A stretch of 64,000 nucleotides of DNA, from NCBI GenBank assembly GCA_964594215.1, contig CAZQLN010000004.1, positions 862-64,861 on the forward strand, read 5' to 3'. The notes beneath the pieces are model-generated. The model saw nothing but the letters and a program-made list of their open reading frames with translations. It ran no database searches and was not told the origin of the DNA. Origin of the DNA: an uncultured Bdellovibrionales bacterium. GTDB taxonomy: Bacteria; Patescibacteriota; Minisyncoccia; Moranbacterales; UBA1568. How positions within the stretch are numbered: the stretch's first letter is position 1; each line of letters opens with the position of its first letter. This document shows positions 1 to 48,299 of this stretch, in pieces. A program made the position numbers and the translations under genes.

Positions 1-3000
1 CAGCTCCATCAGCTGAATCAAGAAGATCAACGGCAATAGTTGGAGTGCCACCCTCACTTGATGATGAACCAGAGATACCGTTACCAGCCGTGATGGTAGC
101 GACATAGTTTCCAGTCGTGTCAGTCGTAAGAGCAACAGCGTTTGATGAAATGGTGACTACACCAGCATTGGTGATAGCAGCATCACCACTCATGGTAGCG
201 AAGGCTGGAGCAGTACCAGTGTTACCAAGAAAAAGCTGACCATTAGTACCCGCTGAGGTGACCTGAATAGCACCAGCACTATTACCATAGAGGACTCCAT
301 TAGAAGTGAGGGTGGTAGCTCCGGTACCACCGCTGCTGACCGGAAGAGTGCCTGTAACTTCGGTAGCCAGATTAATATCAGTGCCGAGGGTTGCCGATAC
401 ACTAATAGTACCGCTACCGTTAGTAATAGTGATGCCACTCCCTTGAGTAAGCGTTGCGAGAGAGAAACCGGCTCCATTACCAATCAATAATTCTCCATTG
501 TTTGTAAGAGAAGCGTCTACGCCTGTACCACCGTACTGAGGCGTAATAACTGTACCGTTCCACACAGCGCTTGTGAATGTCTGACCACCATTTATAGTAG
601 CTATAACTCCGGATACGTTTGGTAAAGTCAATGTTCTATTAGATGACAGATCACCAGCATCAAGTGTGGCATAAAAAGTATCTCCGGCTGATTCCAATAA
701 CAATAGTTCACTAGCCGCATTATTCAAAATAATGTCGAAAGCACCTGTCTGAGTCCAATCACTCGTTAGATCTCCTAGAGCTAATGTCGGAGTAGCTCCT
801 TCTGAAGCAGCAGAACCACTCAAACCATTACCAGCGGTGATGGTAGCGACATAGTTTCCAGTAGTATCTGTAGAGAGAGCTACTGCATCAGCTGAAATAG
901 TCACCACTCCCGCATTAGTGATAGCAGCATCACCACTCATAGTGGCAAAAGCTGGAGCACCAGCGGTAACTCCTAAGAGGAGTTGGCCGTTAGTACCAGC
1001 ATTCGTAACTTGAACAGCGCCAGTACCATTACCAAGGAGTATTCTATTAGCAGTAAGCGTGGTGGTGCCAGTGCCTCCACTCGTCACTGGTAAAGTACCT
1101 GTTACTTCTGAGGCAAGATCAATATCGGTGCCAAGCGTTGCTGTGATTGTAAGCGTACCAGCTCCTTCAGTAACGGTAATACCTGCACCATCAGTGATCG
1201 TAGCTAATGAATAACCGGTTCCATTACCAATGAGTAATGTTCCGTTAGGTGCAGAGCCACCATTGACCCCCGTACCACCACGAGATGGATTGAGTTGGTT
1301 TTCACCTTGTAGTGATGAGGTTCCTGTAAAGTAGGCGACCTGACCAGCAGATCCAGAAGCGGTCGCACCACCTACACCGGATACTGAAGCACATGACCAC
1401 TCATTGGTAGTATTGTTCCATGACAACACATCATCTTGAACACAACCCTGAAGCAACGTCAGTTCGTTTGAACCACCTCCTTGGAACTCTAATCCTGAGT
1501 TTGATGAAGTAATACCAGTGCCATCTTGAGTATCTAATAAATCAATAGCCAGAGTCGGAGTAGCTCCTTCACTTGAGGCCGTTCCCGAGATACCACTTCC
1601 AGCAGTAATAGTAGCTACATAGTTCCCAACAGTATCAGTAGTAAGATCTACAGAATCACCACTGATAGTTAAGACTCCTGTATTGGATACCACCGCATCT
1701 CCAGAAAGAGTAGTGAAAATTGGTGCACCTCCAGTATTACCTAACAGGAGTTGTCCGTTTGTACCCGCTGCAGTTACCTGTATAGCTGAGGTGCCGTTAC
1801 CGTAGAGAATTCCATTCGTAGTAAGGCTCGCTGCGCCTGTACCTCCATTGGTGACCGGGAGGGTGCCGGTAACTTCAGTGGTGAGATCAACACTAGCACC
1901 AAGGGAAGCAGCTACCGTGATAGTGCCGGCGCCATTAGTAATGCTGATACCCCCACCTTGAGTCAAGGTAGCGAGAGTGTAACCACTTCCATTACCGATA
2001 AGAAGAGTTCCATTGGCAGCAGAGCTTCCGTCTACACCAGTACCTCCGTACTGTGCTCCAACAGCAGTACCATTCCAGACAGCACTTGTAAAAGTTTGCC
2101 CTCCATCAAGAGTAGCGAGAGTCCCCGTAGCATTTGGTAACGTAAGTGTACGATTACCAGAAAGATCAGCAGCATCTAAGGTAGCGTAGAAAGTGGCCCC
2201 AGCAGATTCAAGAAGTGAAAGTTCTGAAGAAGCATTGTTTAAGACAATGTCGAAAGCACCATTCTGATTCCAATTAGCAGTAAGGTCTCCTAAGGCCAAT
2301 GTCGGTGTACCACCTTCAGTAGCTACTCCTCCAGAAATACCGTTACCATTGGTAATGCTAGCAATGTAATTACCCGTAGTGTTGGTACCAAGAGCAATGA
2401 GGTCATTGAGAGAGCTTGCTCCCGTACCACCATTTGCTACTGGGAGAACACCGGTCACTTCCGTGGTGAGGTCTACAGTAGTACCAAGAGTACTGGCTAC
2501 GGTAATACTTCCTGATCCATTAGTAATCGTAATGCCAGAACCTTGAGTAAGAGTGGTGAGCGAATAGCCAGAGCCATTACCGATGAGTAGTGTTCCGTTA
2601 GCGGCGGCTGATCCATTTACACCCGTTCCGCCACGCAAAGGTGCTAACTGAGCTTCTGAGGCTACGACACTGCTACTTGTAAAATAAGCCACCTGATTAG
2701 CGCTCCCTGTTCCCGTGATACCTCCAGCACCTGACACCGACGAACAAGACCAAACATCAGTCGTATCATTCCATGATAAAACATCATTGTTAGTACAACC
2801 TTGAAGCAAAGTGAGTTGGTTGTTGCTGGCACCTTGAAACTCTAATCCAGAGTTTGAATTAGTAGCTCCACTACCATCGGCAGAGTTCAGAATATTAACA
2901 GCCAATGTCGGTGCACCACCTTCAGTAGCTACTCCTCCAGAAATACCGTTACCATTGGTAATGCTAGCAATGTAATTACCCGTAGTGTTGGTACCAAGAG

Positions 3001-5200
3001 CAATGAGGTCATTGAGAGAGCTTGCTCCCGTACCACCATTTGCTACTGGGAGAACACCAGTGACTTCACTAGAAAGATCTACCTGAGTTCCGAGGGTTGA
3101 CGCAATAGTGATACTGCCGCCGCCATTGGTCACCGTGATACCACTACCCTGAGTCAGAGTAGCCAGTGAGTAACCGCTCCCGTTACCGATCAAAAGTGAT
3201 CCATTAGCAGCAGAGCTACCATCTACACCAGTACCTCCACGAGATGGATTGAGCTGTGCTTCTCCTTGTAACGAAGAAGCTCCTGTAAAATACGCTACTT
3301 GGCCAGCAGATCCAGAAGCGGTCGCGCCACCCACACCAGATACAGAAGCACAACCCCATTCATTGGTGGTATTGTTCCAAGAAAGTACATCATCCTGGGC
3401 ACAGCCCTGAAGCAGAGTCAATTCGTTAGTACCACTTCCCTGAAACTCTAAACCGGAGAATGATGCAACTGCGCCGGCTCCATCAGCAGAATCAAGAAGG
3501 TCGATAGCGATAGTAGCTGCCCCTCCTTCACTCGCTGAAGATCCGCTAATACCATTACCACTGTTAATAGTTGCTACATAGTTACCAGTCGTATCAGTAC
3601 TCAATGCAACTGAATCTGAAGAAATAGTAATTACTCCGCTACTTGTAATTGTCGCGTCACCCGAGAGAGTGGCAAACGTCGGTGCACCAGCAGTAACTCC
3701 TAAGAGGAGTTGACCATTGGTACCGGCTGAGGTGACTTGAACGGCACCAGTACCATTACCATAGAGGACTCCATTAGAAGTGAGGGTGGTAGCTCCGGTG
3801 CCTCCGTTAGCGACTGGAAGAGTGCCTGTTACTTCGGTGGTGAGGTCAACCGTAGTACCAAGAGTGCTCGCTACGGTGATACTGCCTGATCCATTGGTGA
3901 TAGTGATACCTGAGCCTTGAGTAAGAGTGGCTAGTGAGTAACCACTACCGTTACCAATCAAGAGAGAACCATTAGCGGCTGAACTACCGTCTACACCAGT
4001 ACCTCCACGAGATGGATTGAGCTGATTCTCGCCAGCTAGTGAGGAGATTCCATTCCAGTAAGCGACCTGACCACTCGTACCTGTACCTGTGAGCCCTGCT
4101 GAAAAAGAAGTACACTCCCAAACATTTGTCGCATCATTCCAACTCACTCCCTGCCCATTAGAACAACCCTGAAGCAAAGTCAATTCATTATTGCCAGCTC
4201 CACCAAACTCAAGACCCGAATTTGATGAGGTTGCCCCTGCTCCATCGGCTGAGTCTAGAAGATCAATAGCAATTGTCGGAATACTTCCTTCGCCAGTCAA
4301 TCCCCCACTAATACCATTACCATTGGTAATACTCGCTACATAATCACCGGTAGTATCAGTGCCAAGATCGATACTACCAGAAGCTCCAACACTGATGTCA
4401 GAAAAAGTTGATCCATCGTTAGAGAGTTCCCATGCTTGAGTCGTACCGTTGTAGCGAAGAGCTGGCGCATTTGTAGCGCTTGATACTGTGAGATCGAAAT
4501 TATTACCACTCAGTGCCGTACCAGATCCAATATTGAAAATCTGCTCAGTCGTTCCAGTGTCTGTGTTTTGCGCATGAATATCATCAAGAATTTTATCATT
4601 ATCCTTGAGATAACCTTTGATGGCACTTGCTGGTAATGCTGGAATAAAACTAGCGTCCAGTTTTCCACCCTTATCAAGAACCGGAATGTCACCTTCATTG
4701 GTTCCAACGGTTCTTCCTTGGAGGAACTGCGTATTGAGAGCACGAGGTACAGAACCCAACTTCTTACGCGGTGTCATTTCGGAGTCACCTGCAACACGAA
4801 TACCGATATAGTAATCTCCCGAATCAAAGTTAATGGCATTAGAAAATGCATTGATACCTCCAAGAGAAGCTCGGAAAATACCGTTTTTGACTTCTACAGT
4901 TTGAGTTTCTTCCCAAAGTTTAGGATCAGAATTTGATGGATAGGCATCGGCGGTAGTACGATTTGCTGCATACAAAGCGAAGCGAACCTCATAAGTTCCA
5001 TTGGTAACAATCTGGTTATCTGAGTTAAAAAGCGATGCCGAGATAGAAATGAGGCGAATTGAGTTCGAATTTGATTGGTTTGACTGCGCAAAAACAGACT
5101 TTTGGTTAAAGCCCCACCCGATTATCACCACCAAGCTTAAAGCTATGAAGAGTGATGTGTATGCTGTTTTTCGGTTTTTATTTTTTACATAAAATAGCAT
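1..5200 (-). CDS. Giant secreted/cell-surface repeat protein, N-terminal 1,733 codons. The 3' end lies beyond position 1. Start ATG at 5200-5198 with a signal peptide (MLFYVKNKNRKTAYTSLFIALSLVVIIGWGFNQKSVFAQS). The body is 200-250 aa repeats with recurring motifs TEVTG(T/V)LPV(A/T/S)NGGTGA(T/S)(T/S)L, LLIGNGSGYSLATLTQGSGITITNG and TTGNYVA(T/S)ITxGNGISG.
   Basis: I translated the minus strand by hand in the frame whose codon first bases are congruent to 1 mod 3. The frame agrees at both ends (5200 and 58) and I met no stops in the stretches checked. The ORF track omits it because no stop falls inside the window. Nucleotide repeats of variable period (about 600-765 nt) are plainly visible. Confidence 0.6.
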   Translation of the reverse strand, partial: MLFYVKNKNRKTAYTSLFIALSLVVIIGWGFNQKSVFAQSNQSNSNSIRLISISASLFNSDNQIVTNGTYEVRFALYAANRTTADAYPSNSDPKLWEETQTVEVKNGIFRASLGGINAFSNAINFDSGDYYIGIRVAGDSEMTPRKKLGSVPRALNTQFLQGRTVGTNEGDIPVLDKGGKLDASFIPALPASAIKGYLKDNDKILDDIHAQNTDTGTTEQIFNIGSGTALSGNNFDLTVSSATNAPALRYNGTTQAWELSNDGSTFSDISVGASGSIDLGTDTTGDYVASITNGNGISGGLTGEGSIPTIAIDLLDSADGAGATSSNSGLEFGGAGNNELTLLQGCSNGQGVSWNDATNVWECTSFSAGLTGTGTSGQVAYWNGISSLAGENQLNPSRGGTGVDGSSAANGSLLIGNGSGYSLATLTQGSGITITNGSGSITVASTLGTTVDLTTEVTGTLPVANGGTGATTLTSNGVLYGNGTGAVQVTSAGTNGQLLLGVTAGAPTFATLSGDATITSSGVITISSDSVALSTDTTGNYVATINSGNGISGSSASEGGAATIAIDLLDSADGAGAVASFSGLEFQGSGTNELTLLQGCAQDDVLSWNNTTNEWGCASVSGVGGATASGSAGQVAYFTGASSLQGEAQLNPSRGGTGVDGSSAANGSLLIGNGSGYSLATLTQGSGITVTNGGGSITIASTLGTQVDLSSEVTGVLPVANGGTGASSLNDLIALGTNTTGNYIASITNGNGISGGVATEGGAPTLAVNILNSADGSGATNSNSGLEFQGASNNQLTLLQGCTNNDVLSWNDTTDVWSCSSVSGAGGITGTGSANQVAYFTSSSVVASEAQLAPLRGGTGVNGSAAANGTLLIGNGSGYSLTTLTQGSGITITNGSGSITVASTLGTTVDLTTEVTGVLPVANGGTGASSLNDLIALGTNTTGNYIASITNGNGISGGVATEGGTPTLALGDLTANWNQNGAFDIVLNNASSELSLLESAGATFYATLDAADLSGNRTLTLPNATGTLATLDGGQTFTSAVWNGTAVGAQYGGTGVDGSSAANGTLLIGNGSGYTLATLTQGGGISITNGAGTITVAASLGASVDLTTEVTGTLPVTNGGTGAASLTTNGILYGNGTSAIQVTAAGTNGQLLLGNTGGAPIFTTLSGDAVVSNTGVLTISGDSVDLTTDTVGNYVATITAGSGISGTASSEGATPTLAIDLLDTQDGTGITSSNSGLEFQGGGSNELTLLQGCVQDDVLSWNNTTNEWSCASVSGVGGATASGSAGQVAYFTGTSSLQGENQLNPSRGGTGVNGGSAPNGTLLIGNGTGYSLATITDGAGITVTEGAGTLTITATLGTDIDLASEVTGTLPVTSGGTGTTTLTANRILLGNGTGAVQVTNAGTNGQLLLGVTAGAPAFATMSGDAAITNAGVVTISADAVALSTDTTGNYVATITAGNGLSGSAASEGATPTLALGDLTSDWTQTGAFDIILNNAASELLLLESAGDTFYATLDAGDLSSNRTLTLPNVSGVIATINGGQTFTSAVWNGTVITPQYGGTGVDASLTNNGELLIGNGAGFSLATLTQGSGITITNGSGTISVSATLGTDINLATEVTGTLPVSSGGTGATTLTSNGVLYGNSAGAIQVTSAGTNGQLFLGNTGTAPAFATMSGDAAITNAGVVTISSNAVALTTDTTGNYVATITAGNGISGSSSSEGGTPTIAVDLLDSADGA

Positions 5201-17475: not shown

Positions 17476-20424
17476 CTACGAGACAACAATACTAATCAGT
17501 TTATTGGGTACCACAATAACTTTCCTGACTGTTTGGCTACCAATAGTTTCTTGCACTTTTTCTCTTGCAAGAGCAAGTTTTTCCACTTCTTCATTTGAAA
17601 GATCAAGTGCACCCTGGAATTGATCACGAATTTTACCATTAATCTGTACCATCAGTGTCACCTCTGCTACCACTACCTTGCTCGGATCAAAAACAGGCCA
17701 AGTCATCTCAAAAAGAGTTCCTTCTCCATCATTTTTTTGCCAAAGCTCTTCAGTAATATGCGGAGCATAGGGAGCTAAGATTCGTAGAAAAAGTTTCAGC
17801 TGTTCCCGAGTTAAGCCATTTTTTTCGATTATATTCACTGCTCCCATAAGCGCCGCTACTCCAGTATTCATCTTAAGAAGACTAATACTTTCCTCTACCT
17901 TGGCTATGGTTTGATGTAGGATTCTTTCTGTCTCATTTTTTTTATCATCAGAAAGTCCCTCATCTACCTTAAAGTGAAGTTTCCATACTCGATCAAGAAA
18001 ACGTCTCACTCCCACAATACTCTCTGGATTCCATGGGTAAGCCCCCACTTCATTATACGGACCAATGAAAGCCAGGTAGACACGAATGGTGTCCGCACCT
18101 AATTCCGCAACCAGTTCATCTGGATCAATCACATTTCCTTTAGATTTGCTCATCTTATTGCCGTCTGGCCCAAGAATAAGACTGCGGTTCATACGCCTGG
18201 TATAGGGCTCCACCTCATTAACGAGCCCTAAATCATAAAGTGCCTTATGAAAAAAACGTGAGTACAGTAAGTGCATAGTGGTATGTTCTGCTCCACCACT
18301 ATACAAATCTACCGGCATCCAGGCAGCTAGTTTGTTTTTATCAGCAAATACTTCTCTATTTGATGGATCACAATAACGCAAGAAATACCAACTACTATCC
18401 ACAAAAGTATCTAGGGTGTCTGTCTCACGACGAGCCGATTTACCACATTTTGGACATACTGTGTTTACAAAATCCTTGTTCTTAGAAAGCGGGCTCTCGC
18501 CGTTGTCATTAGGAAGATAGTCCCTTACGGCCGGTAGTTCTATCGGTAAGTCTTCGTCTGCTACCGGTTGCCAACCACACTTTTCACAGTGAATAAGCGG
18601 GATCGGACAGCCCCAATAACGCTGACGACTCACACCCCAGTCACGAAGACGGTAAGTCTTTGTCATCCTACCATGTACTTTTTCGATAATCTTTCCTTTG
18701 GCGTCATTGCCTGACAGTCCATCAAATTCACCAGACTGTACCAAAATACCGTCTGCACTTACAAGAGCACTCTCCTCTTGTCGCTCAAATAATTCTATGG
18801 CCCATTTAGCCTCTGCTACAGTAAAATAATTCTTGACCGCACTCTTCTCAACCCATACTAGTTCATGTTGAGCACTATCCTCTTCACTGATAGCTATCTG
18901 TTCATCATCAATAAGTTCAAAAAAGGCAAAGCTCCACAAAGCATGGCGGTTAATTTTCTTACCCCGATGATAGAATTTGGTATGTTTCTGGATATTGGGT
19001 GTACCAATAAATTTCACGTTCTTATAGCCCGTTTCTTCGAGGAGCTCCCTCCGCGCTGATTGCTCGATACTCTCACCTTCATCTATACCTCCAGTCACTA
19101 CCCCACGCATATCAAAATTTTTCCAAGATATTGCTAAGTAAGAATCCCGCTTTGGATCATAGAGTGCGATAGCTACATTATTTCTAGCCTCTGTCTTTTC
19201 TTCGGGTCGATAAGCATCATCACGGTTACCTTCCGTCACCACACACTCTTCAATCACCTTCTTAATCGGCAGACTAAACTTCTTAGCAAAAGCGAAGTCG
19301 CGCTCATCATGACCCGGTACCGCCATGATAGCTCCAGTACCATAGCCAGCTAATACATAATCAGCCACGTATAGAGGGATTTCTTCTCCCGTTGCCGGGT
19401 TAATAGCTACTACTCCGCCAAGCAGTACTCCCGTCTTTTCTTTAGCGGTATTAGTACGCTCTATCTCAGTTTTCTTCTTAGCGGCCTCTACGTAAGCTCT
19501 CACTTCCTCTTTATTAGAAAGAACATCATGATCATCCTGCAAAGCCAGAGTTACCCAAAGATGTTCAGGCGCCAAAACCATATAGGTTACCCCATAGAGA
19601 GTGTCTGGTCGCGTAGTAAAAACCGTTAACTGTGCTCGTTCACCATCTGGTCCACGGTTATCATTAGCCTCTACATTATGGGTAAAGCGAAGAAGGAAAT
19701 CTATCTCCGCCCCATCACTTCGGCCTATCCAATTTTTCTGAGCAGTCTTGATTTCTTCAGGCCAATCAAGCCCCTTCAGATCATCTATTAACCTATCAGC
19801 ATAGGCCGTAATTCGTAGTTGCCATTGCTTCATAGTTTTCTTCTCGATCTGAGCCCCACAACGCTCACAAGTGCCATTGATAACCTGTTCATTAGCCAAA
19901 ACTGTTTTGTCAGTCGGACACCAATTGGCAAGGGTTTCTCGCTCCTCGACTAATCCTGCTCTAAAAAGCTGAATAAACAACCACTGAGTCCATCGGTAGT
20001 ATTGGGGATCACAGGTTGCTATGGCACGAGACCAATCAAATATAGCTCCCATAGACTGAAGCTGGGTTTTCATATAGTCCATGTTTTGGTAGGTCCACAC
20101 TCGTGGATCTAAACCTCGCTTGATAGCGGCATTTTCAGCAGGAAGACCAAAGGCATCGAAACCAATGGGATAGAGGACATTCTTACCACGCATTCGCTCA
20201 AAGCGAGCTCGTATGTCGGGCACTGCAAAAGCGTACCAGTGACCAACGTGTAAGTTGCCTGATGGATAGGCAAATTCTACCAACTGATAGAAATTCTCTT
20301 TTCCTTCTACAGTATCTAAAACGACATGCAGGTTGCGCTCAGCCCACAAAGCCTGCCATTTTGGTTCAATAATTTCTGGTTGGTAGAGGTTTTCCATAAA
20401 CAGAGTACCTCTACTATATGCCAA
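17476..20424 (-). CDS. leuS: Leucyl-tRNA synthetase with an inserted NUDIX-like domain. The probable start is MENLYQ, nine codons in.
   Basis: HVGH, editing-domain motifs, YRLRDWGVSRQRYWG, KMSKS. NUDIX box GGIDEGESIEQSARRELLEETGY at about aa 444-466. Confidence 0.9.
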   Translation of the reverse strand: MAYSRGTLFMENLYQPEIIEPKWQALWAERNLHVVLDTVEGKENFYQLVEFAYPSGNLHVGHWYAFAVPDIRARFERMRGKNVLYPIGFDAFGLPAENAAIKRGLDPRVWTYQNMDYMKTQLQSMGAIFDWSRAIATCDPQYYRWTQWLFIQLFRAGLVEERETLANWCPTDKTVLANEQVINGTCERCGAQIEKKTMKQWQLRITAYADRLIDDLKGLDWPEEIKTAQKNWIGRSDGAEIDFLLRFTHNVEANDNRGPDGERAQLTVFTTRPDTLYGVTYMVLAPEHLWVTLALQDDHDVLSNKEEVRAYVEAAKKKTEIERTNTAKEKTGVLLGGVVAINPATGEEIPLYVADYVLAGYGTGAIMAVPGHDERDFAFAKKFSLPIKKVIEECVVTEGNRDDAYRPEEKTEARNNVAIALYDPKRDSYLAISWKNFDMRGVVTGGIDEGESIEQSARRELLEETGYKNVKFIGTPNIQKHTKFYHRGKKINRHALWSFAFFELIDDEQIAISEEDSAQHELVWVEKSAVKNYFTVAEAKWAIELFERQEESALVSADGILVQSGEFDGLSGNDAKGKIIEKVHGRMTKTYRLRDWGVSRQRYWGCPIPLIHCEKCGWQPVADEDLPIELPAVRDYLPNDNGESPLSKNKDFVNTVCPKCGKSARRETDTLDTFVDSSWYFLRYCDPSNREVFADKNKLAAWMPVDLYSGGAEHTTMHLLYSRFFHKALYDLGLVNEVEPYTRRMNRSLILGPDGNKMSKSKGNVIDPDELVAELGADTIRVYLAFIGPYNEVGAYPWNPESIVGVRRFLDRVWKLHFKVDEGLSDDKKNETERILHQTIAKVEESISLLKMNTGVAALMGAVNIIEKNGLTREQLKLFLRILAPYAPHITEELWQKNDGEGTLFEMTWPVFDPSKVVVAEVTLMVQINGKIRDQFQGALDLSNEEVEKLALAREKVQETIGSQTVRKVIVVPNKLISIVVS

Positions 20425-26162: not shown

Positions 26163-26519
26163 CTATTTTAATTTCTTTTTGAATCCGCCAATTTGAGAAC
26201 TAATCACCTCAACCTTCTTGAAAAAAATTTCTTTTTCTTGTGGCGTGATACTTGCCATTTTTTCTAGTGTATCGATTGCTGCCAGTGTCTCATAGAGAGA
26301 ACCTAGCGCTATTTCAAAAAAACGGTTTAGTTCTTTATCTGAGGTCTTTCCGCTTCCTTCTGCGATATTCAAAACTACTGATAACGCTGCTCTACTCAAC
26401 TGACTACCTATTACATAACGTGACTCCTGACTTAGACTTGCCACAACCTTTGAAACTTCTATAAACAAATCTTGTGCATCTTGGTAGACTTGCCAGTCTA
26501 GAAAACGAAATTTGTTCAT
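26163..26519 (-). CDS. Four-helix-bundle protein of the 23S rRNA intervening-sequence family (TIGR02436-like)
   Basis: FRFLDWQVYQDAQDL...GSQLSRAALSVVLNIAEGSGKTSDKELNRFFEIALGSLYE matches the family consensus well. Confidence 0.7.
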   Translation of the reverse strand: MNKFRFLDWQVYQDAQDLFIEVSKVVASLSQESRYVIGSQLSRAALSVVLNIAEGSGKTSDKELNRFFEIALGSLYETLAAIDTLEKMASITPQEKEIFFKKVEVISSQIGGFKKKLK

Positions 26520-28545: not shown

Positions 28546-29964
28546 TTAGGCAATACGCTGAAACAAAGGTTCTGTTTTCCCAGTCTCGAGAGCCGTCTGG
28601 ATTTTCTCAGCAGTAGCTGGCATAAAAGGTTTGAGGCCGAATGCAATATATGAAAGCTGGCTAAAAAGATTTTTCATAACAAGGTTAAATTCTTCTCTAT
28701 TTTCTTTTACCAGTATCCATGGCTTTTCTTTATCCATGAAAATATTAGCTCTCGATACTAATCCCATAACCTCCTTCAAAGCCTCAGATATGTTGAGATC
28801 GGCTAGATGATGGTCTGAAGAGCTGTTCGTACTACTCACTATTGTTTCTGGTAAAGATTCTAACTGTTCTGCTAATTTCAGAGCACGAGATACAAGATTA
28901 CCAAGACCGTTAGCTAGGTGTGCATTATAAGTCTCAACCATACGCTCCATAGTCAGATCTACATCTGAACCATACGGACCAGCTGATAGAAGAAGATACC
29001 GTGTACCATCAGTACCAAATTTTTCTAACATCTCATCAACTGAGATTACATTACCGACTGTCTTACTCATTTTACGTCCTCCCGAAAGAATGAATCCGTT
29101 CACGAGCAAACACTTCTGGGTTGGTAAACCAAGATGCAACAACATAATCGGCCAGATAGTACCATGGACTCGGAGAATATCTTTTCCAATCAACTGAACA
29201 TCAGCTGGCCAGGCAGTGGGAACATTCTCTTTGTTTCCGTCCCAACCAAGGGCTGTGAGGTAATTAAGAAAAGCATCTACCCAAACATAGGTAGTGTGCG
29301 TTTGATCAAATGGCAATGGTATTCCCCAATCTACATTCTTGCGTGATATAGAAACATCTTCTAGCTTCTCACCTTCCAAAAATGAGAGGATCTCTGCCTT
29401 ATACTTCTCGGGCATCACTAAGAGGTCGTCACTCTTGATTTTCTGCACTAACGCTTCCTGCATGCTAGTCATCTTCATGAGATAACTTTCCTCTTTTGTA
29501 AATACTGGCACTGTGCCATGTTCGGGACACTTGCCATCTATAAGATCGCTTGGATTCTTGAACTGTTCACAACCGGTACAGTAGAGTCCCTCATACTCCC
29601 CTTTATAAATAATTTTTCGATCATAAAAATCCTGCAACACCTTCTCTACGACCGCCTTGTGAGTAGACTCAGTAGTCCGAATAAACCGGTCATGGCTAAT
29701 GTTTAGTCTCTTCCAAAGATTTTGAAAAGCTTCCGCTATTTCATCCACAAACTCTTGAGGATCTTTTCCGAGTTCTTTAGCTTTTTGCTCTATCTTCATA
29801 CCATGTTCGTCGGTACCAGTTGAGAAAAATACCTCTTTGCCGTCTCTTCTCTGAAAACGAGCTACAATGTCAGCAGCCACAGTTGTATAGGCGTGTCCAA
29901 TATGAGGCAAACCATTTACATAGTAGATAGGAGTGGTGATATAAAATGGCTTTTTGGCTTCCAT
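28546..29964 (-). CDS. metG: Methionyl-tRNA synthetase, short form of 472 aa lacking the C-terminal tRNA-binding extension
   Basis: HIGH variant PHIGHAYT. KMSKT. Confidence 0.9.
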   Translation of the reverse strand: MEAKKPFYITTPIYYVNGLPHIGHAYTTVAADIVARFQRRDGKEVFFSTGTDEHGMKIEQKAKELGKDPQEFVDEIAEAFQNLWKRLNISHDRFIRTTESTHKAVVEKVLQDFYDRKIIYKGEYEGLYCTGCEQFKNPSDLIDGKCPEHGTVPVFTKEESYLMKMTSMQEALVQKIKSDDLLVMPEKYKAEILSFLEGEKLEDVSISRKNVDWGIPLPFDQTHTTYVWVDAFLNYLTALGWDGNKENVPTAWPADVQLIGKDILRVHGTIWPIMLLHLGLPTQKCLLVNGFILSGGRKMSKTVGNVISVDEMLEKFGTDGTRYLLLSAGPYGSDVDLTMERMVETYNAHLANGLGNLVSRALKLAEQLESLPETIVSSTNSSSDHHLADLNISEALKEVMGLVSRANIFMDKEKPWILVKENREEFNLVMKNLFSQLSYIAFGLKPFMPATAEKIQTALETGKTEPLFQRIA

Positions 29965-30048
29965 ATTGAGTGTTATTAGCTTCTTCTACGATGTCATAAA
30001 GTCCGTCTTCTGTCGATATAGACGTCTCTCTAGACGTAGTTTTCTAGG

Positions 30049-30077
30049 TTGACATATGGCACTAACTAGAGTATACT
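30049..30077 (+). promoter_or_regulatory. Consensus sigma70 promoter TTGACA-N17-TATACT driving small ORF 1
   Basis: Exact -35 and near-exact -10 with 17-nt spacer. Confidence 0.5.
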
Positions 30078-30134
30078 ATGTAGGTGCAGATTTATAGGAG
30101 TCTCCACATTCACACTTTTCCGAGGGGAAAATTA

Positions 30135-30320
30135 ATGCAACAAAATACTGCTCCTGCCAACAACAGCTCAACCACTGAATGCACCTGCCAATTGGGACAG
30201 GACCATACCTGTGGTCTTCCGGGTCGTCACCTGATCAATCTCAACAATGCGCCAAGTGCCATGGAAGAGCGGTTCCGAGCGGGATCGGGTTATGTGCCAG
30301 CATTCTCTCGTCGTTGGTAG
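30135..30320 (+). CDS. Small Cys-rich protein of 62 aa (MQQNTAPANNSSTTECTCQLGQDHTCGLPG...) with conserved 5' leader and RBS GAGGGGAA
   Basis: Strong promoter, SD 7 nt upstream of ATG, rho-independent terminator downstream. GC markedly above the genome background. Confidence 0.4.
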   Translation: MQQNTAPANNSSTTECTCQLGQDHTCGLPGRHLINLNNAPSAMEERFRAGSGYVPAFSRRW

Positions 30321-30361
30321 AGAAGAGCAAGAGTCGTTATTTTGGCTGAAACAGCCATCCC

Positions 30362-30396
30362 GGGGTCGCTTTCACAAGAAGCGACCCCATTTTTAT
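30362..30396 (+). terminator. Rho-independent terminator (GGGGTCGC-loop-GCGACCCC followed by ATTTTTAT)
   Basis: Perfect 8-bp GC-rich stem plus U-run. Confidence 0.6.
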
Positions 30397-30403
30397 AAAA
30401 AAC

Positions 30404-30433
30404 TTGACTCTTGGGAGATGGTAGGAGTAGACT
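30404..30433 (+). promoter_or_regulatory. Sigma70 promoter TTGACT-N18-TAGACT driving small ORF 2
   Basis: Follows the terminator and precedes the second copy of the conserved leader. Confidence 0.45.
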
Positions 30434-30491
30434 GTCCGGGTAGATTTATAGGAGTCTACACACACTCAACCAAGTTCCGAGGGGAATACCA

Positions 30492-30845
30492 ATGTGTTAT
30501 AGATGTACTTCAGGTCAGGGTGGCTATTGTACCGACAGTGGAGAGGTTATTATACCGCGTTCACCAACCGGCCAAATGGCTGTTAGGCTCACGCGTAAAC
30601 CACCCCTTCAACACCAGCCGCACATGCTCACCGGACAGGCGAGCATCAGGCAGCCAGCTAACGCTGATACACCTCGGCGGACAGCAGATTGCGGACAGTT
30701 TTCACCCCCAAATCGTGGACTACAAGTGCAAGACCTCTTTACCAATCGTGTCGGCATCCATGAAGAAACCGTCGAGACTATGATGCAAGCTGCATCAGAA
30801 GCGGACGATCTCCTCATCGATGTTCCTCTCACCATCACCGGCTAA
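30492..30845 (+). CDS. Small Cys-rich protein of 117 aa (MCYRCTSGQGGYCTDSG...)
   Basis: Same leader and RBS architecture as ORF 1. High GC. Confidence 0.35.
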   Translation: MCYRCTSGQGGYCTDSGEVIIPRSPTGQMAVRLTRKPPLQHQPHMLTGQASIRQPANADTPRRTADCGQFSPPNRGLQVQDLFTNRVGIHEETVETMMQAASEADDLLIDVPLTITG

Positions 30846-30869
30846 ATATGGTTTCATTGTAAACCTGTA

Positions 30870-30922
30870 GCCATCCCGGGTCACTTTTTTGCAGTTTTTG
30901 CAAGAAGGTGGCCCGTTTTTTA
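30870..30922. terminator. Probable bidirectional terminator between small ORF 2 (+) and rsmI (-)
   Basis: GGGTCAC...GTGGCCC stem flanked by T-runs on both sides. Weaker than the first terminator. Confidence 0.3.
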
Positions 30923-35798: not shown

Positions 35799-35999
35799 GT
35801 GAGTACCTCAGAAACTCGCAAAGAAGCTGTCGTTCTGGCTGATAAAATCAACCAAAATGGCGGCCTTACGAAGCGAAGCGGCAAAGAACGGCAACACCCT
35901 GTTGCTCACCCCGACGTACTTGTTTCTGGTTCTTCTCCAGAAACTCGTCAACTTCGGGCAATTCAAGAAAATCAAATCCGGGAACGTAGATCCTGGTAG
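35799..35999 (+). CDS. Small basic hypothetical protein of 66 aa. GTG start with AGGGAG SD 7 nt upstream.
   Basis: Good RBS. Sits in the glyQS-tgt intergenic region and is followed by a hairpin terminator. Confidence 0.3.
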   Translation: MSTSETRKEAVVLADKINQNGGLTKRSGKERQHPVAHPDVLVSGSSPETRQLRAIQENQIRERRSW

Positions 36000-36017: not shown

Positions 36018-36058
36018 GCTCTAAAAAAGCGGTGACTGGAGAAACATCCGACACCGCT
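36018..36058. terminator. Bidirectional hairpin terminator (AAAGCGGTG-loop-CACCGCTTT flanked by T/A runs)
   Basis: 9-bp stem between convergent genes (small ORF +, tgt -). Confidence 0.45.
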
Positions 36059-36064
36059 TTTTAA

Positions 36065-47896: not shown

Positions 47897-48299
47897 GGGG
47901 TTGTTTAGACTCGACAGCGTGTACTTTCAAAATATGCAAGCCGACCCCGAGAGCATGGTCGTAAATCTTACTCTCACAATGATAATTGCAAACATCATTT
48001 CAAAGACGAAGAGTGCACTAGCTAACGCTTTTGCTCCCTCTTACGCTCTTGCTTTCGCTTAATTGTGATCGCCATCAGAACTCCTATTCTCGATAAAGAA
48101 CTTCTGGTGTCATATTCATCGAGACGACCGTAAGGATTTCGCTTTTTTTACCCTATTGGTTGTATGCAAAAGAAAGAACAGACAAAAAGTTTTGTTTCTT
48201 TTCTCATTTTTGTTCTGTCACTCCAAAAGAAACTACGCTTGTAGAATATTTTGAAAAAACATGAACTGGACATGGGTGCAATTCCCATCAACTCCACCA
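47897..48299 (+). ncRNA. ssrA: tmRNA (SsrA). Candidate tag ORF GCU AAC GCU ... UAA encodes ANAFAPSYALAFA.
   Basis: 5' GGGGUUGUUUAGACUCGACAGCG matches GGGGCUGAUUCUGGAUUCGACGGG. 3' GGACAUGGGUGCAAUUCCCAUCAACUCCACCA matches the tRNA-like end. The acceptor pairs GGGGUUG/CAACUCC with a G3-U wobble. It sits immediately downstream of smpB. Confidence 0.65.

Follow-up and report, generated by a model that had tools for sequence, protein, structure and literature searches.

Positions 30040-30922 of a 64,000-nucleotide (nt) stretch of DNA from an uncultured bacterium of the Moranbacterales (contig CAZQLN010000004.1; the whole stretch is referred to as the window) hold an island that we interpret as two small-protein genes. 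On the plus strand, the island carries two modules of the same build: a promoter resembling the sigma70 type, a common leader of about 50 nt, a small open reading frame (ORF) with a cysteine motif and an intrinsic terminator. Both flanking genes lie on the minus strand and encode a methionyl-tRNA synthetase (MetRS, PF09334; metG) and a TP_methylase/RsmI-type protein (rsmI). The explanation we favor, and consider probable, is that of two real small-protein genes, each with an expression leader and a Cys3(His) metal knuckle in its product. Within this explanation, the coding, monocistronic and non-foreign architecture can be put forward with high confidence.

Using RsmI as a query, the best relatives were found in metagenome-assembled genomes labelled Candidatus Moranbacteria or Moraniibacteriota (Patescibacteria, candidate phyla radiation (CPR)), some of them mislabelled 'uncultured Bdellovibrionales'. 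Exact-protein look-ups and a DNA pattern scan recovered the same island with the same flanking genes from 14 independent assemblies of different samples. Five of these are identical or near-identical to the window across the island, seven represent a second type with about 88.5% identity over the island and 92% in the flanking genes, and the remaining two contain the same called genes as judged by gene-level comparison, not DNA. The chimeric contig that the initial annotation had named as a possible refutation is thus ruled out. When metagenomes were scanned for a degenerate version of the leader, only the same species (L092) and one chance match in eukaryote-like DNA (L091) came up, and a literature search for the locus yielded no papers.

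Coding evidence for the two reading frames

The main pairwise comparison was carried out between the window and L001, a relative of the 88% type that is about 88.5% identical across the island, and all values below refer to this pair unless stated otherwise. ORF2 (30492-30845, plus strand) encodes a hydrophilic protein of 117 amino acids (aa) with the pattern M1-C2-x2-C5-x7-C13, followed by H44 and N57ADTPRRT64. Substitutions in ORF2 are distributed over codon positions 1, 2 and 3 as 7/9/34, and the non-synonymous (dN) and synonymous (dS) rates of 0.064 and 0.57 result in an omega of 0.11, compared with 0.03-0.11 for the neighbouring housekeeping genes. The dS of ORF2 is clearly above that of all neighbouring genes in the same genome pair (0.30-0.35); transcription-associated mutation and local recombination are possible causes.

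ORF1 (30135-30320, plus strand) encodes a hydrophilic protein with the pattern C16-x-C18-x5-H24-x-C26. Its length is 61 aa, so that of the sizes initially given for the two ORFs (62 and 117 aa) the second stands and the first is one residue too long. The dN/dS ratio of ORF1 is 0.31 in the true frame, and the two alternative frames give 1.25 and 2.1. Only two indels separate it from its L001 counterpart, each of 3 nt and in frame, and the ORF is kept there at 59 aa. Amino-acid identity of the ORF1 product to L001 is 74%, compared with 92-98% for the flanking proteins. Over both ORFs, dN ranges from 0.064 to 0.152 versus 0.01-0.034 in the flanks; non-synonymous evolution of the ORF products is 3-10 times faster than that of the neighbouring housekeeping proteins. 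The cassette-2 proteins of the more distant pair L011 and L012 are 41% identical with a dN of 0.57, as opposed to 90% identity and a dN of 0.055 for RsmI.

Homologues could be identified for both proteins. The ORF1 product corresponds to collection entries P0001 and P0018, and its orthologue in L012 shares the core TCxCxLGxDHTCG..GRHL..L.NAPS. With the ORF2 alignment as query, HMMER was run exhaustively against 1.84 billion representative proteins and returned P0015 (71 aa, E-value 3.5e-12) and P0016 (92 aa, E-value 2.3e-11); a third match, P0017, was rejected as a spurious repeat protein. A word-indexed protein search with both ORFs found only variants at at least 69% identity. Among the four sequences of the ORF2 family, invariant residues include M1, C2, C5, G11, C13, H44, G48, Q49 and the block N57-A-D-T-P-R-R-T64, whose DNA differs only at third codon positions among three lineages (window, L096 and L097).

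Signs of a structured RNA were also sought. No Rfam family matched the island at gathering thresholds, and relaxing the cutoff to E<=10 gave only three chance-level microRNA and small nucleolar RNA matches, all on the opposite strand. Compared with shuffled sequences, the coding parts alone had folding z-scores of -1.1 and -0.4, and the whole transcripts including hairpins and terminators reached -2.4 and -3.9. Because the coding parts fold no better than shuffles, the excess seen for whole transcripts comes from hairpins in the untranslated regions (UTRs) and from the terminators. Codon-position bias, dN/dS ratios, protein homologues, the lack of Rfam matches and the lack of structure in the coding parts lead us to read both units as small-protein mRNAs. 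On sequence grounds, both ORFs experience purifying selection. The coding assignment is firm for ORF2, and ORF1 is likewise coding, with less constraint than ORF2.

Expression signals and the metG-rsmI slot

Promoters were located by a consensus scan of -35 and -10 boxes over 12 positions, and transcription starts were predicted from the -10 boxes only. In case of cassette 1, promoter P1 (30049-30077; TTGACA-N17-TATACT) matches the consensus at 11 of 12 positions, is 93% identical in L001 and reads TTGACG-N17-TATACT in L012. At the predicted transcription start begins a first leader hairpin, HP1 (30084-30107; GUG.CAGAUUU-AUAG-GAGUCU.CAC), followed by a second, HP2 (30116-30131; UUUUCC-GAGG-GGAAAA), with the Shine-Dalgarno sequence GAGGGG 8 nt 5' of the ATG. 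Downstream of ORF1 lie a 3'-UTR hairpin (30344-30356; GGCUG-AAA-CAGCC) and intrinsic terminator 1 (30362-30396), which has an 11-bp stem (30362-30388) with 7 GC pairs and a T-run and is 100% identical in L001. Cassette 2 repeats this order. Promoter P2 (30404-30433; TTGACT-N18-TAGACT, 9 of 12 matches) is kept in L001, L011 and L012; HP1 (30440-30459; GUAGAUUU-AUAG-GAGUCUAC) again begins at the predicted start, and HP2 (30474-30487) carries the Shine-Dalgarno sequence GAGGGG, likewise 8 nt 5' of the ATG; UUCC-GAGG-GGAA is the HP2 sequence common to both leaders. The 3' hairpin (30840-30872; GGCUA...UAGCC with an inner GGUUU/AAACC pairing) encloses the ORF2 stop codon and is also found 3' of cassette 2 in L011 and L012. 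Intrinsic terminator 2 (30877-30922) has an 18-bp stem (30877-30915) and a T-run, is likewise 100% identical in L001 and ends 4 nt short of the stop codon of the convergent rsmI. All these features lie on the plus strand.

In both modules -35 and -10 promoter boxes, an ORF preceded at 5-10 nt by a Shine-Dalgarno sequence, and an intrinsic terminator are readable at the sequence level and conserved in relatives, and the modules would accordingly represent independent monocistronic genes. The initial annotation had described exactly two such self-contained transcription units for small Cys-motif proteins, and every element was recovered where it had placed it. Shared motifs were sought in the 64-kb window and in the fetched loci. 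The leader motifs AGATTTATAGGAGTCT (30088 and 30442) and TTCCGAGGGGAA (30118 and 30475) and the 3' motif GCCATCCCGGG (30354-30364 and 30870) each occur in exactly two plus-strand copies in the 64 kb, in the same order in both modules and nowhere else. The initial annotation had listed GCCATCCCGGG as a shared 3' motif. It is indeed common to both modules, but its L001 counterparts read GCCACACCGGG and GCCTTCCCGGG, and we rejected it as a conserved motif; it represents the junction of an AGCC-ending 3' hairpin and the foot of the terminator stem.

Between the window and L001, leader 1 is 98%, P2 97%, leader 2 100% and both terminators are 100% identical, in contrast to 82-86% for the ORFs and 92% for the flanking genes. 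Promoters, leaders and terminators are almost invariant around faster-changing ORFs. To compare the leaders, minimum free energy structures were calculated for ten sequences, two each from the window, L001, L011 and L012 and one each from L096 and L097. HP1 is part of the predicted fold in all ten, starting 7 nt past the -10 box in both cassettes of the window, and HP2 is predicted in eight. L096 has a longer hairpin at the HP1 position. L097 retains HP1 with three base pairs altered on both sides relative to L012, changes that were read by eye as MAFFT sets the L097 arm out of register. The HP1 loop is the same in both cassettes within a genome and different between genomes (window, AUAG; L012, AUUGG; L011, GAUUG). 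This pattern indicates concerted evolution, either by gene conversion of the tandem leaders or by co-evolution with a common factor.

The position between metG and rsmI is itself conserved. In Moranbacteria with RsmI proteins 64-86% identical to that of the window, the two genes stay neighbours with a gap of 350-1600 nt. Most of these gaps contain a unit oriented against the flanks, in which a promoter close to consensus and a 5' hairpin precede a small ORF with its own Shine-Dalgarno sequence, and a strong terminator follows. L011 and L012 (RsmI 85-86% identical) possess two cassettes as in the window with strongly diverged Cys-motif ORFs. In L096 and L097 (RsmI 80-84% identical), the slot encodes the ORF2 homologues P0015 and P0016, each followed under one promoter by a membrane protein of 59-60 aa (L096 5286-5465, L097 3535-3717) that is absent from the window's lineage; this sole promoter, GGAGTAGA[CT]T, is matched by P2. 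More distant relatives carry unrelated small membrane proteins of 55-176 aa in the slot. In loci L013-L059, the membrane-protein genes lie behind a conserved promoter (TTGACAAAATC...TG.TGTATAAT) and a 5' hairpin and are followed by a conserved terminator (GAGCCCGA...TCGGGCUC). Pfam and NCBIfam searches with these slot proteins gave no match.

From the slot content of these relatives it follows that cassette 2 is ancestral to the sub-clade and that cassette 1 was added later. Cassette 2 is orthologous to the single cassette of the sister lineages, with cassette 1 as a lineage-specific second unit sharing a common regulatory shell. The locus as a whole represents an ancestral 'small-gene slot' of Moranbacteria, not a recent import.

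The metG gene next to the slot (window 28546-29964, L011 6627-8036, L012 4829-6235, L097 1553-2995) exists in two very different alleles in the clade. Type 1 is found in the window, L001 and L096 and type 2 in L011, L012 and L097, with only about 47% amino-acid identity between types, compared with 84-86% for RsmI and 88-90% for peptidase M16 at these loci. Near-identity is confined to the first residues, the C-terminal ~40 residues and, for L011 and L012, the ~55 nt upstream. It looks as if the metG gene body has been replaced by recombination beside the small-gene slot.

Protein properties and competing explanations

All versions of the two proteins are hydrophilic, with a grand average of hydropathy (GRAVY) of -0.3 to -0.8 (ORF1 and ORF2 products -0.5 to -0.7) and no 19-residue Kyte-Doolittle window above 1.0, and 39-48% of their residues are Gly, Pro, Ser, Thr, Gln or Asn. 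Sequence analysis of the ORF1 and ORF2 products found no signal peptide, membrane segment or double-glycine leader. A type I toxin-antitoxin arrangement was rejected on account of this hydrophilicity (maximum 19-residue value <1) and because the antisense promoter-like site within terminator 2 (30884-30856, 9 of 12 matches) is only weak. Every version has a single N-terminal C-x(1-2)-C-x(6-11)-C cluster, in which a His frequently lies two residues ahead of the last Cys, as in the L011 cassette-1 product (C5-x2-C8-x9-H18-x-C20), which is otherwise barely alignable. Profile comparison of the ORF1 and ORF2 families using hhalign was not significant (E-value 0.23), so that paralogy of the ORFs is not demonstrable at the protein level; the ORF2 family and the L011/L012 cassette-2 pair did not match significantly either. 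The duplication comprises the regulatory shell together with a short Cys motif. No Pfam or NCBIfam family matched either ORF or its homologues, in case of Pfam not even at E<=10, and a sequence search of the PDB gave chance matches only (E>=0.3). The ORF products belong to no described family, as the initial annotation had stated.

As the best functional guess we retain the metal-binding small protein that was already proposed there. We suggest that the leader is an expression device and not a ligand sensor. By analogy to the ompA and aprE leaders, HP1 at the very 5' end would shield the mRNA from 5'-end-dependent decay, HP2 may present or partly mask the Shine-Dalgarno sequence, and both hairpins together with a near-consensus promoter would make the small proteins abundant. 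All versions have the N-terminal C-x(1-2)-C-x(6-11)-[H-x]-C pattern in common, which could form a short Cys3(His) knuckle binding a metal, most likely zinc, and so nucleate an otherwise disordered polypeptide; this would work intracellularly through a protein or nucleic acid that it binds. This picture of abundant metal-knuckle proteins acting intracellularly is plausible yet tentative.

Several observations weigh against our interpretation. Closely spaced Cys residues number only three in the ORF2 family, with H44 as a fourth ligand being a guess, and no curated zinc-finger model in Pfam or NCBIfam fits the Cys spacing. AlphaFold models are of low confidence, with mean predicted local distance difference test (pLDDT) scores of 45 for ORF2 and 53 for ORF1, and Foldseek found no match in the PDB; the knuckle is therefore to be taken as a pattern and not as a demonstrated fold. 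A weak beta-hairpin plus helix in the low-confidence ORF1 model is a hint only. HP2 is absent from L096 and L097 and is thus not essential to the family, and the constraint on ORF1, which has been seen in just three lineages, is weak.

The last point raises the question of whether only ORF2 is a real gene and ORF1 a decaying or non-functional duplicate, with a transcript made and a protein lacking function. The elevated dN/dS of ORF1, its 74% amino-acid identity next to 92-98% for the flanking proteins, the small number of lineages and the barely alignable L011 product would all fit. Nevertheless, frame, start and stop are preserved, both indels are in frame, dN/dS is clearly lower in the true frame than in either of the others, and promoter, leader and terminator are maintained. 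Further, the C-x-C-x5-H-x-C..GRHL..NAPS core is kept in L012 despite saturated synonymous sites (judged by proxy from L011 versus L012, the closest pair tested), and we consider decay of ORF1 unlikely. The least probable alternative is that the units are structured non-coding RNAs, as the initial annotation had suggested, or that the leader is a ligand- or protein-sensing, riboswitch-like RNA with incidental ORFs. The well-folding whole transcripts, a leader conservation exceeding that of the coding sequence and an HP1 loop that is the same within and different between genomes, which would fit recognition of the loop by one trans factor, speak for such a model. It has to contend with codon-position bias, dN/dS values of 0.11 and 0.31, in-frame indels, protein homologues, coding parts lacking excess structure and the negative Rfam result. 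In addition, the leader consists of two short hairpins (6-10 bp) with neither a riboswitch-type multi-helix junction nor a conserved internal loop, and one of these is missing in L096 and L097.

The ORFs could also be precursors of bacteriocins or similar ribosomally synthesized and post-translationally modified peptides (RiPPs), with the Cys-rich N-terminus as core, the tail as a recognition 'follower' and the enzymes encoded elsewhere. They are small, Cys-rich, fast-evolving and strongly promoted, the acidic tail of ORF2 could form a helix, and the 59-60-aa membrane protein behind the ORF2 homologues of L096 and L097 recalls a bacteriocin with its immunity protein. We judge this proposal, which was among the initial candidates, to be very unlikely. 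No radical-SAM, YcaO, LanB/C/M, MNIO, peptidase-ABC exporter, immunity or integrase gene was found by Pfam among the called island neighbours and 42 window ORFs, a scan that bypassed about 10 ORFs of at least 70 aa including one of >1666 aa, and this is in line with the initial statement that modifying and immunity genes are not adjacent. The ORFs belong to no precursor family in Pfam or NCBIfam, their products have neither signal nor leader features, the most conserved part (NADTPRRT and H-x-x-x-GQ) lies outside the Cys region, and the absence of the membrane protein from the window's lineage would be lethal were it the immunity protein. Recent acquisition of the island as foreign DNA, also suggested initially, is decidedly unlikely as well. 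In its favor are the strand opposite to the surrounding operons, the orphan ORFs, the base composition and the two very different metG alleles, from which it follows that recombination does occur at this spot. The GC content of 30135-30845 is 51.3% against a mean of 43.5% (standard deviation 2.6%) for 700-nt tiles of the window, and the highest tile (0.516) lies within the island. As other tiles reach 0.50, the reported higher GC is real but the excess is moderate. Further, genome codon usage predicts 0.49-0.50 for the ORFs (observed 0.53-0.54, gene mean 0.43), and about two-thirds of the excess therefore result from amino-acid composition, presumably mainly from the richness in Gly, Pro, Ala, Arg, Thr and Cys. 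The residual of about 0.04 is common to the homologues in the same slot of L096 and L097, which are equally GC-rich (0.55-0.57 versus a locus GC of 0.45). No integrase, tRNA, flanking repeat or mobility gene is present at the island, and searches of viral contigs, phage records and plasmid records showed no similarity to it. Given the clade-wide synteny, with the slot architecture extending to RsmI identities as low as 64%, the 14 assemblies and this lack of phage or plasmid likeness, recent transfer is unlikely.

A more far-reaching version of the small-protein explanation would view the slot as a very strongly expressed 'hypervariable micro-protein' locus of episymbiotic CPR bacteria, whose products bind their own HP1 loop for autoregulation or act on the host or on phages. 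Autoregulation through the loop could account for its co-evolution in both cassettes of a genome, and action on host or phage for the 3-10 times faster protein evolution within an almost frozen regulatory shell. We regard this extension as a long shot. Returning to the explanation we favor, the core of the locus is ordinary: a pair of orphan genes for small proteins whose expression signals are of the textbook kind. The re-use of the slot, the almost frozen shell around fast-evolving coding sequence and the concerted evolution of the HP1 loop are mildly unusual.

Genomic context and relation to known systems

The annotated genes of the window are housekeeping genes, among them those for ATP synthase subunits, several aminoacyl-tRNA synthetases, ParAB, RecO, TGT, peptidases M16 and M17, SmpB with its transfer-messenger RNA (tmRNA), IF3 and L20. 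Ten of the 42 scanned window ORFs (142-373 aa) have no Pfam match. A second plus-strand orphan ORF of 66 aa (35799-35999), with a GTG start and the Shine-Dalgarno sequence GGGAG, is located between the minus-strand genes glyS and tgt. It ends ahead of a hairpin at ~36029-36060 that could terminate both strands, has no family match and belongs to the called genes of L093. In the leucyl-tRNA synthetase (982 aa; 17476-20424, minus strand), the editing domain is followed by an inserted NUDIX domain (residues 414-530, E-value 6.8e-13). The ATP synthase operon contains, between its c- and b-subunit genes, one for a '23S rRNA intervening-sequence protein' (26163-26519, minus strand; PF05635, E-value 8e-25). 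On the minus strand of positions 1-5000, an ORF of >1666 aa with diverged repeats of about 600-770 nt runs off the start of the window and probably encodes a giant surface protein; positions 1-4500, with no listed ORFs and no Rfam match, had been considered as a large unannotated RNA, which was rejected in view of this ORF. The tmRNA (47897-48299, plus strand, 113 bits), directly after smpB, matches only weakly at the pseudoknots, and its tag-coding region contains a long insertion that does not align, features that are common in CPR.

CPR bacteria or Patescibacteria have tiny genomes, and unannotated small ORFs account for a large share of the genes in them. At the metG-rsmI locus, comparative data show that two such orphan ORFs are real genes under selection, with promoters, leaders and terminators readable straight from the sequence. 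Throughout a candidate phylum, one and the same syntenic slot serves for small proteins that are unrelated to each other, with a Cys knuckle in the present case and membrane peptides in others. If it is true that the proteins are abundant metal-binding regulators or host-interaction factors, the slot offers a handle on the lineage-specific biology of uncultured symbionts; otherwise it is a well-documented pair of orphan small genes.

Four known systems invite comparison. A bacteriocin or RiPP paired with a small membrane immunity protein resembles the arrangement in L096 and L097, where a small Cys ORF is followed by the 59-60-aa membrane protein, but leader or signal, maturase and exporter are all lacking, the window has no membrane protein, and protein conservation is centered outside the Cys region. 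The leaders of E. coli ompA and B. subtilis aprE are 5'-terminal stem-loops that stabilize mRNAs. Similar to these, a 6-10-bp hairpin is located here at the predicted first transcribed base and is followed by a strong ribosome-binding site. There is no sequence relationship, the start is a predicted one, and the loop evolves in concert between cassettes, which is not required of classical stabilizers. The CCHC zinc knuckle (Pfam zf-CCHC, C-x2-C-x4-H-x4-C) has the same ligand order, Cys-Cys-His-Cys within 11-16 residues, as ORF1 and the L011 cassette-1 protein. However, the spacing is unlike, Pfam gives no match even at E<=10, and the ORF2 family does not possess the His-x-Cys pair. Prokaryotic zinc-finger micro-proteins, such as the C(P)XCG-type one-domain proteins of Haloferax volcanii, are under ~100 aa in size, contain few Cys and His residues and are encoded by stand-alone genes, and many of them are lineage-specific and of unknown function. 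The ORFs described here differ from these in having neither a C(P)XCG motif nor a second CxxC pair, showing instead a three-Cys C-x(1-2)-C-x(6-11)-[H-x]-C pattern without a Pfam or NCBIfam match. What the two groups have in common is that both are small stand-alone genes in which closely spaced Cys and His residues are the sole recognizable feature.

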